Positions 15,369-15,569 of a stretch of DNA of 64,000 nt are shown in pieces. The first letter of the stretch is position 1; each line of letters starts with the position of its first letter. Position numbers and translations under genes: made by a program. Origin of the DNA: Candidatus Coatesbacteria bacterium (GTDB lineage Bacteria; RBG-13-66-14). Under the pieces are notes generated by a model. It was not told the DNA's origin, did no database searches, and worked only from the letters and a program-made list of their open reading frames with translations. The DNA is taken from positions 591-64,590 of the forward strand of contig WJLX01000012.1 of the NCBI GenBank assembly GCA_014728225.1. Direction: 5' to 3'.

Positions 15369-15569
15369 CCGGAGTGCCGAAAAACAGCCGCCGGCGCCCC
15401 GGTCTACACCCGGCCGCGCCGGAACTGGCACGGTTTTTGCATCTCGGCGAGTTCAACCAATCGGCGGGCGGTGGCGCCTCCGCAAAAACCGTGCCAGTTC
15501 CGGCGCCGGCGCTTTCCACGGCGCCGGGGCGGGGCGGCGGCTTGGGCGGGCTGTTTTTCGGCACTCCGG
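15369..15569. repeat. nested palindromic repeat element, copy C (core 15419..15504, ATCTCGGC-first, GGAACTGG variant)
   Basis: Core CCGGAACTGGCACGGTTTTTGC ... GCAAAAACCGTGCCAGTTCCGG. Outer inverted repeat CCGGAGTGCCGAAAAACAGCC (15369-15389) / GGCTGTTTTTCGGCACTCCGG (15548-15569). Sits in the divergent spacer between dsrE-like and tgt. Confidence 0.8.

Follow-up and report, generated by a model that had tools for sequence, protein, structure and literature searches.

A nested palindromic repeat with putative sigma-54-type boxes between genes of a Coatesbacteria genome

Palindromic intergenic repeats are common, and their function and the forces that maintain them can seldom be measured. The Correia elements of Neisseria (also NEMIS or CREE) are non-autonomous intergenic repeats of 100-160 bp, with inverted repeats of ~26 bp, that carry promoters and are polymorphic for filled and empty sites (PMC3184786). 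A different kind of reference comes from the genome-wide mapping of RpoN, in which many sites were bound without driving a gene, possibly serving as storage or as a roadblock (PMC7657599). The present analysis concerns a 201-bp segment, positions 15369-15569 of a 64,000-nt stretch of DNA (the window) from Candidatus Coatesbacteria bacterium, contig WJLX01000012.1. The segment is one of seven copies in the window of a ~200-bp repeat that forms a hairpin within a hairpin, and the described kinds that come closest to it are Correia/NEMIS and ERIC and, more loosely, REP/BIME (PMC3184786).

The segment is probably copy C of a lineage-restricted, non-coding intergenic repeat that resembles miniature inverted-repeat transposable elements (MITEs) and ERIC, was inserted as a composite, has its stems under selection and carries a putative sigma-54-type core. 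Orthologous copies in a sister lineage that is ~95% identical allowed divergence to be measured part by part, and two separate stems appear to be held by selection as the intervening DNA drifts. The empty sites are clean and indicate that the nested unit arrived whole, and the repeat may serve annotators of Coatesbacteria metagenome-assembled genomes (MAGs) as a marker.

All comparisons were made within the 64 kb of the source genome and a few dozen related loci, ~320 kb in all. The sister lineage is represented by contigs L012/L014 (L012 for copies B and C) and L021 (copies F, G and H), and more distant Coatesbacteria lineages are represented at mutS by L022-L025 (MutS 74% identical), L028 (67%) and L029 (69%). 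The window has a G+C content of 68.5%, and the same DNA is present in microbial-mat metagenomes, the source samples being those of ERZ922771-4 and JGI 3300012002. Independent ENA, JGI and Logan assemblies reproduce the locus of copy C at 99.8-99.9% identity, so the sequence is no assembly artefact. Several independent metagenome contigs (L011, L013, L015 and L022) have ends that fall inside a core arm, and because they start or stop there the repeat appears to break short-read assemblies of Coatesbacteria genomes. When sequence collections were scanned with the two-arm pattern, matches came from two genome loci (Coatesbacteria-type MAGs) and five contigs of one metagenome; viral contigs gave no match to either of the subfamilies described below, and a BLAST search of plasmids gave no match.

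Nested architecture of the repeat

The unit can be modeled as a three-level nested palindrome of ~160-210 bp. Its outer stem of 14-23 bp would be the element's own terminal inverted repeat rather than an older terminator; within this stem the model places two non-complementary spacers of 15-38 nt and a 25-bp core stem, and at the apex 41 nt that comprise a conserved bubble of unpaired bases and a small hairpin that varies. A first-pass annotation of this DNA had described the cores as embedded in second-level outer inverted repeats, and this holds for all seven copies: on re-inspection the outer repeats are 19-23 nt long and 95-100% complementary, and they stand 123-166 nt apart. The five arm pairs quoted at that time (copies A, F, C, B and H) are real, and copies E and G bear outer repeats too. 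Across the window and the related loci, 14 of the 17 elements examined have outer repeats of 14-23 nt. When the window was scanned for inverted repeats at separations of up to 260 nt, arms of at least 19 nt with more than 100 nt between them turned up only at the seven cores, the sole other long-range inverted repeat in the 64 kb being 15 nt long and 93% complementary. By our own calculation, two 110-nt flanks would by chance have a perfect 19-nt match ~4e-8 times. The cores themselves are marked by a 14-mer, GGCACGGTTTTTGC, which occurs 19 times in the window with two or fewer mismatches (0.41 expected), and these occurrences define seven full elements and four shorter, imperfect relatives. 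The full elements are 193-212 bp long, except E.

2235-2437: copy A, 203 bp, between convergent genes; outer arms GCCGGCGGAACTTTGAAAAA / TTTTTCAAAGTTCCGCCGGC, of canonical type
6819-7011: copy B, 193 bp; outer arms CCCGAGAGACCGTTGACG / CGTCAACGGTCTCTCGGG
15369-15569: copy C, 201 bp; parts given below
28201-28361: copy E, 161 bp, beginning 2 nt past the stop of a DUF2062 gene; outer arms 28201-28219 / 28343-28361, 19 nt, 100% complementary
35016-35217: copy F, 202 bp, a filled site with a known empty counterpart; canonical outer arms CGCCGGGAACCTTTGAAAAACG / TGTTTTTCAAAGGTTCCCGGCG
39527-39728: copy G, 202 bp, between convergent HD-domain and PQQ-repeat genes; outer arms 39527-39548 / 39707-39728, 22 nt, 95% complementary
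41368-41579: copy H, 212 bp; outer arms CCGCGCCGGCGTCAATCCAGACC / GGTCTGGATTGACGCCGGCGCGG

All seven full elements are intergenic and lie amid housekeeping genes. Convergent gene pairs flank A and G, tandem genes flank B, E, F and H, and copy C lies, as the first-pass annotation had it, between the divergent dsrE-like gene and tgt. Six of the seven adjoin at least one gene 3' end, with 0-3 nt from the stop codon to the edge of the element at A, E, F and G; the right arm of copy A abuts the stop codon of the open reading frame (ORF) 2437-3741(-). The copies are found in either orientation relative to the flanking genes.

In copy C the parts are arranged as follows.

15369-15389: left outer arm, CCGGAGTGCCGAAAAACAGCC, 21 nt, 100% complementary to 15549-15569
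15390-15415: left spacer, with no complementarity to the right spacer; 5 substitutions relative to L012
15416-15440 (+): left core arm (also given as 15411-15440), the same in L012/L014
15426-15441 (+): sigma-54-type box in the left core arm, TGGCACGGTTTTTGCA, pointing right to tgt
15441-15481: apical region, 41 nt, beginning ATCTC and finishing CCTCC
15481-15496 (-): sigma-54-type box in the right core arm, TGGCACGGTTTTTGCG, pointing left
15482-15506 (-): right core arm (also given as 15482-15511)
15507-15548: right spacer
15549-15569: right outer arm, GGCTGTTTTTCGGCACTCCGG, the perfect complement of the left arm

The outer arms of copy C are separated by 159 nt. The left one is identical in the sister lineage (L012/L014), and its inner half, GAAAAACAGCC, fits the family consensus found in L004 and L007. 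The left box has no mismatch to TGGCAC-N5-TTGCW, and the apex consists of an unpaired internal loop, with an A.C mismatch beside the stem, followed by a small variable hairpin. A sigma-70-like promoter of the dsrE-like gene lies just beyond the left arm (15360-15331, minus strand), and a promoter scan found no sigma-70-like promoter between copy C and tgt.

Folding, which had been proposed as a check, gave nested hairpins for all seven copies as RNA and for copy C as DNA, with z scores of -9 to -15. The RNA folds of the seven copies have z scores of -9.4 to -15.3, well below shuffled controls, and the 219-nt segment around copy C forms the nested hairpin at -103.7 kcal/mol as DNA (z -10.7) and -159.5 kcal/mol as RNA (z -9.0). 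The outer stems are Watson-Crick throughout, with no G-T positions. The spacers are not self-complementary, again as first described: the normalised complementarity score of a copy's own pair (-0.24) is not higher than that of cross-copy pairs (-0.22). In the core stem, pairing at offsets 1-11 beyond the 14-mer holds in 10-13 of 13 copies, the count being 12 or 13 at all offsets but one, and C-G/T-A and C-G/G-C are among the compensatory pair types seen. Within the window, all seven copies have an identical 14-mer, the six others having come from a search pattern that required it. An A.C mismatch occupies the first loop position in all 13 copies, and past it come an unpaired ATCTC/CCTCC bubble and then the variable apical hairpin. 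The whole window gave no match to Rfam at gathering thresholds, and an E-value search with copy F returned only microRNA-precursor noise, at no more than 33 bits where the thresholds are 75-150.

The four shorter relatives of the element are these.

11654-11725: short imperfect hairpin, arms GGCGCGGTTATTGC / GTCACGGTTCTTGC, without the standard outer repeat
4488-4557: similar short hairpin
18477-18528: similar short hairpin
44582-44650: similar short hairpin

One arm of these hairpins reads GGCGC(G/A)-TTnTTGC; the other reads GTCAC in three of the four and GGCAC at 44582-44650. Their apex is G+C-rich and an outer repeat is absent, and two of them lie directly upstream of sigma-70-like promoters (TTTGCC-N17-TACAAT near 11760 and TTGCAG-N17-TATAAT near 44690).

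Some further resemblances among the parts were noted. The outer arm of copy B (GACCGTTGACG) is closely like the copy's own apical-stem sequence (GACCGTTAACG; 6897-6907 vs 6992-7002). Spacer motifs shared by A and G (CCTATCAACTC) and by B and H (GTTGTCGGTGTCGG) were rejected as homologies; they were outscored by many chance pairs in an all-against-all comparison and are not kept in L021, and the idea of an IHF site was dropped too. A mirror-image likeness of the copy C outer arm to the core arm was judged meaningless.

Insertion history and divergence of the parts

The clearest evidence for insertion comes from copy F. In the window, the stop of the AAA_16/TPR gene (35014) and the start of mutS (35258) are 243 bp apart, of which 202 bp are the element, and in the sister contig L021 the site is filled and the gap is likewise 243 bp. 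The syntenic site is empty in L022-L025, L028 and L029, where only 1-2 nt lie between stop and start (e.g. GCCTGAGATGAGC); in L029 the gene call gives a gap of 32 nt, and the start was re-read as a TTG 2 nt past the stop. These empty counterparts have neither the core nor the outer hairpin. By parsimony, the whole 243-bp block, outer arms included, would be a derived insertion at F, and because three outgroup lineages have 1-2 nt between stop and start, no hairpin is likely to have been there beforehand. We therefore model the composite with its outer arms as the inserted unit, as shown for F, with copies that would then have stayed in place.

These results bear on the two origins that the first-pass annotation had offered, namely a core that inserted into pre-existing terminator hairpins and a ~200-bp ancestral composite that diversified while hairpin-templated repair kept both arms in step. 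The former fails at F, where its own empty-site check found orthologous loci with neither core nor outer hairpin, and in the window no outer hairpins occur on their own. The composite itself fares well, in view of the inserted unit, the shared arm consensus and the conserved spacing; hairpin-templated repair may have helped but is not needed. A reverse case is found in L025, which has a related element in the lipoprotein/HD-gene spacer; the window has 86 bp there and no hairpin. At copy C the 95% relative (L012/L014) carries the element. The upstream region of the 80% relative (L020), 412 nt long, could not be aligned and contains neither core nor outer repeat; in the 72% relatives (L016/L017) a further gene is inserted and the repeats are different ones. 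L016/L017 (Tgt 72% identical) have no cores, and their intergenic DNA at 5017-5303 and 12445-12742 holds other palindromic repeats, CCCTCTCCC...GGGAGAGGG and GGGCGGGTCTGGAGACCCGCCC.

Divergence was measured on five orthologous copies, B and C against L012 and F, G and H against L021, and it differs greatly from part to part.

Core arms: 1/256 differences (0.4%)
Outer arms: 8/209 differences (3.8%)
Apical region: 23/204 differences (11.3%)
Spacers: 54/335 differences (16.1%)
Other intergenic DNA: 46/378 differences (12.2%)
Coding flanks: 19/360 differences (5.3%)

By Fisher tests the outer arms are more conserved than spacers plus apical region (p = 1.7e-5) and than other intergenic DNA (p = 5e-4), and most of their changes sit at the arm margins. 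This pattern in the aligned sequences indicates purifying selection on both stems while spacers and loops drift, since the copying of one arm onto the other would by itself leave the rate of substitution between lineages unchanged, and the arms have diverged slowly. Copy B in L012 has three changes in its left outer arm and none in the right, and the margins of G and F show one-sided decay. In the right spacer of copy H (41519-41556 vs 8183-8220 of L021) a patch of ~20 nt is wholly different and the 35-nt left spacer is identical, a difference that looks like patch replacement, not point mutation.

The first-pass annotation had taken the outer arms to be unique to each copy. Within the ~320 kb compared, that holds for the arms of E and H and for the full-length arms of B and G, which may nonetheless belong to subfamilies; A and F share a consensus, and C, G and B share it in part. 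The outer arms CCTTTGAAAAACAGCC / GGCTGTTTTTCAAAGG are present on L004, L006 and L007, which derive from an unrelated metagenome, and A and F have the same motif at an equal distance from the core. The consensus CCTTTGAAAAACAGCC is thus common to A, F, L004, L006 and L007; the arms of C, G and B are akin to it and look like derivatives of the consensus, with departures that occur in both arms. Overall, consensus ends are found in 5-8 copies, with B, E and H deviating, and a weak pattern over all aligned arms, (G/A)ACC-NNN-G(AAAA), is suggested. The GACC motif recurs across most outer arms. In our model, the same changes on both non-consensus arms would result from selection for pairing, possibly aided by template switching in the palindrome. 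Since the arms of B, E, G and H were not found in the ~320 kb beyond the copy itself and its orthologues, a single transposase that recognises all ends is unlikely.

A second subfamily (type 2) is present in L025 and L001. It has core arms GGCGTYGGCACGTTTCTTGC and outer repeats of 14-16 nt that stand 150-156 nt apart.

L025, 3238-3421: type-2 copy
L025, 13239-13416: type-2 copy
L001, 6893-7080: type-2 copy

Because type 2 also bears outer repeats at similar spacing, the nested geometry is a trait of the family. In L025 a type-2 copy fills the DUF2062/cupin spacer that houses type-1 copy E in the window, and L001 has both types. One L025 outer arm seemed to lie in coding sequence, as copied target DNA might; this was dropped as an over-long gene call, the true start being ~78 nt downstream.

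The A-run and T-run pairs of several outer arms had been read as a bidirectional terminator. Intrinsic terminators, in which a G+C-rich stem with a loop of 3-8 nt is followed at once by a U-tract, are a poor description of arms that form stems of 19-23 bp, stand 123-166 nt apart and have the T-run inside the stem rather than after it. For C, E and H, a terminator scan found nothing at the outer arms. At F the scan gave two weak sites, from mini-hairpins in the spacers and no more than in shuffles; the thought that these mini-hairpins with outward T-runs mark ~100-nt RNAs driven from the core was abandoned, since their count equals that of shuffles and the other copies are without them. The outer-arm motif TTTGAAAAAC / GTTTTTCAAA was not found without a core anywhere in the window. 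Long-stem hairpins occur past genes in the window, e.g. at 39739-39772 (15-bp stem).

Sigma-54-type boxes and alternative explanations

The sigma-54 promoter consensus is YTGGCACG-N4-TTGCW, with GG at -24 and GC at -12. The core arm reads (C/T)GGCACGGTTTTTGC(A/G), a match to this -24/-12 consensus, and its invariant 14-mer can also be written YGGCACGGTTTTTGC(A/G). The two boxes of each core face each other across 41 nt. A search for TGGCAC-N5-TTGCW with at most one mismatch found nine matches in the window (1.0 expected), all of them in core arms and two of them perfect, and experimentally mapped RpoN sites have the same form, e.g. ATGGCACGCTAGTTGCGG (PMC7657599). The type-2 family (GGCACGTTTCTTGC; L025, L001) reads YGGCACG-TTTC-TTGC, in which all consensus positions are kept; the N4 positions, the remaining stem and the loop all differ from type 1. 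Furthermore, a solo box TTGGCAC-N5-TTGCA precedes the same Bac_transf sugar-transferase gene by ~80 nt in two further Coatesbacteria lineages, as TTGGCACTTTTTTTGCA in L028 (~18170-18190, minus strand) and GTGGCATTTTTTTTGCA in L029 (~14690-14710, minus strand), in surrounding DNA that has diverged. The conserved solo box suggests that the phylum uses sigma-54-type promoters. Immediately downstream of it comes a strong sigma-70-like promoter (TTGACT or TTGACA, N17, TATATT).

Judged from these matches, the case that sigma-54 polymerase binds the element is nearly evenly balanced, leaning slightly to the negative. If it does bind, the element would be a docking site for sigma-54 RNA polymerase with two predicted convergent promoter complexes, either activator-dependent or silent, and the long stems would give read-through transcripts a very stable hairpin. 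Functional boxes would mean that a repeat family is spreading convergent sigma-54 docking sites in a candidate phylum without cultured members, with a bearing on transcription insulation, antisense RNA and sigma-factor budgeting. Literature searches that paired sigma-54 with MITE, REP or palindromic repeats found no precedent; promoter-bearing repeats exist, and among those returned there was no case of sigma-54 boxes or of a palindrome that holds convergent boxes.

A more elaborate proposal, which we consider a long shot, makes the core a mobile sigma-54 "fork-junction" module that would trap polymerase or permit activator-independent initiation at hundreds of sites per genome. Sigma-54 binds pre-melted promoter DNA most tightly, and the end of the extruded stem resembles such DNA. 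As duplex, the core would offer two face-to-face -24/-12 boxes. Extruded as a hairpin, in a cruciform or on the lagging-strand template, its 25-bp stem would form one complete -24/-12 duplex that stops exactly at the -12 GC and is followed by the A.C mismatch and a 5-nt bubble, and the outer stem, kept paired at a fixed distance, would aid extrusion.

Several observations weigh against a mobile composite with a sigma-54-type core. No transposase gene is present in the 64-kb window, and neither the window nor any of the related loci compared showed an autonomous element, or a transposase, with matching ends. Reading the flanks of A, C, F, L004, L006 and L007 revealed no target-site duplication. 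The insertion at F exceeds the palindrome by ~40 bp (35218-35257, from the right arm to the mutS start); this stretch is absent from the empty sites of relatives and has no match elsewhere, and it may have come in with the element or been added afterwards. The E and H arms, and those of B and G at full length, are confined to their own copy and its orthologues in the ~320 kb compared (64 kb of it from this genome), and type-1 sites without the standard outer repeat occur in L003 and in the orthologous pair L001/L002. As to the boxes, tblastn with PspF and RpoN C-terminal queries found no rpoN or enhancer-binding-protein (AAA+ activator) gene in 321 kb, too small a share of the genome to be decisive. 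No shared upstream activator site was found, only the outer-arm consensus being common upstream of the boxes. By our own reading, box orientation is uncorrelated with gene direction, and hundreds of high-affinity sites per genome would titrate sigma-54.

Four other explanations, not all of them mutually exclusive, have to be set beside the composite insertion. That a short mobile core of ~95 bp entered the loops of terminator hairpins that were already present and differed from locus to locus is suggested by the B, E, G and H arms, which are unique in the sequence compared, by the position of six of seven copies beside a gene 3' end (four of them 0-3 nt from the stop codon), and by the genome's use of long-stem hairpins after genes (39739-39772). 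This explanation has almost no chance of being correct: it is contradicted for F by the hairpin-free empty sites of 1-2 nt in three lineages, the A, F and in part the C, G and B arms share a consensus with copies in other genomes, and the 64 kb contain no solo outer hairpins. Furthermore, native hairpin loops are 4-5 nt and not 30-70 nt, the T-runs of the element lie inside its stems, and the spacing of the arms is fixed across loci and subfamilies. A different suggestion is that the arms owe their lasting identity to template switching or hairpin-templated repair and not to selection. The correction of quasi-palindromes by template switching is an established mutational mechanism, and it would suit both the pure Watson-Crick outer stems, with no G-T, and the placement in both arms of the changes of C, G and B relative to the consensus. 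As a contributing mechanism it is possible but not probable. Divergence in the arms is 3-4 times slower than in the DNA around them, and conversion does not lower the rate between lineages; the three changes in one arm of copy B in L012 with none in the other, the one-sided decay at the margins of G and F, and spacers that have not been homogenised although they lie between two paired stems also speak against it.

The remaining two explanations concern function. The element could act as RNA, either as a structured non-coding RNA of ~200 nt or, as has been described for ERIC, REP and Correia elements, as a 3' untranslated hairpin that stabilises or processes the mRNAs of its neighbours, and the likeness to sigma-54 sites would then be irrelevant. 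The very stable RNA folds, the location of most copies right after stop codons, and covariation or conservation in all three stems would agree with this, as would the asymmetric bubble, one strand of which (GGAGG/GAGAU) allows a possible G.U pair and tandem G.A pairs. We regard it as doubtful in view of the stems without G.U pairs, the absence of an Rfam family match, a 14-mer that is invariant in sequence and not merely paired, and copies in both orientations relative to genes, including C between divergent genes. Coincidence deserves to be taken more seriously, and is tenable if somewhat less than an even prospect: the 14-mer would be the site of another protein, such as a transposase, a recombinase or a nucleoid protein. 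Face-to-face boxes correspond to no known promoter layout, the short related hairpins with GTCAC arms break the GG dinucleotide, no rpoN or activator gene was seen in the 321 kb, and no activator sites were found. Against coincidence stand the 11-13 specified positions that are matched in both families, the differences between the families falling at unspecified positions, and the conserved solo box upstream of a gene in related lineages. On balance the composite insertion, with selected stems and a putative sigma-54-type core, remains the preferred reading of copy C.

Two repeats of other kinds occur in coding sequence of the window. An 84-bp tandem repeat at 50198-50389 (2.3 copies at 93% identity, with a third, degenerate copy to ~50450) falls within ORF 50019-50864, where it would specify a protein repeat of 28 residues. 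In the unannotated ORF 2437-3741(-), a 103-nt direct repeat (2689-2791 and 3052-3154, 81% identity) suggests an internal protein repeat.

Relation to described repeats and promoter sites

The element is like a MITE in being a short, non-coding, multi-copy unit with terminal inverted repeats and with filled and empty orthologous sites; the target-site duplication that also marks a MITE is missing. It also resembles the Correia elements: both are bounded by inverted repeats, bear sequence motifs, would form long hairpins once transcribed and have filled and empty sites. Correia elements, however, have ends that are conserved across copies, a TA duplication and promoters of sigma-70 type, whereas the Coatesbacteria element has variable ends, no duplication, a second, conserved inner palindrome and sigma-54-type boxes that face inward. 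The ERIC or IRU sequences, imperfect palindromes of 127 bp, are similar in their transcribed intergenic location, their size variants and their strong RNA hairpins (PMC3184786). They are conserved over their full length, whereas in the Coatesbacteria element conservation is limited to the core arms and a short arm motif, and the spacers are saturated.

The resemblance to REP and BIME sequences is looser. These are abundant extragenic palindromes that often lie past stop codons and lack target duplications (PMC2817692, PMC3733652). REP sequences are 20-40 bp long, with a GTAG or CGTC tag and a RAYT gene, whereas the Coatesbacteria unit is a nested structure of 160-212 bp, and the window showed no RAYT-like gene. 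Integron attC sites are likewise imperfect palindromes in which pairing geometry is conserved over sequence and unpaired bases set polarity. They have conserved ends and a variable centre, the reverse of the Coatesbacteria element, and belong with cassettes and an integrase, neither of which was seen here. Finally, the -24/-12 promoters of RpoN, including its silent intragenic and antisense sites, have the same YTGGCACG-N4-TTGCW sequence as the core arms. The known RpoN sites are single-copy and locus-specific, in contrast to the Coatesbacteria boxes, which are paired face-to-face within a mobile palindrome that recurs about once per 9 kb.

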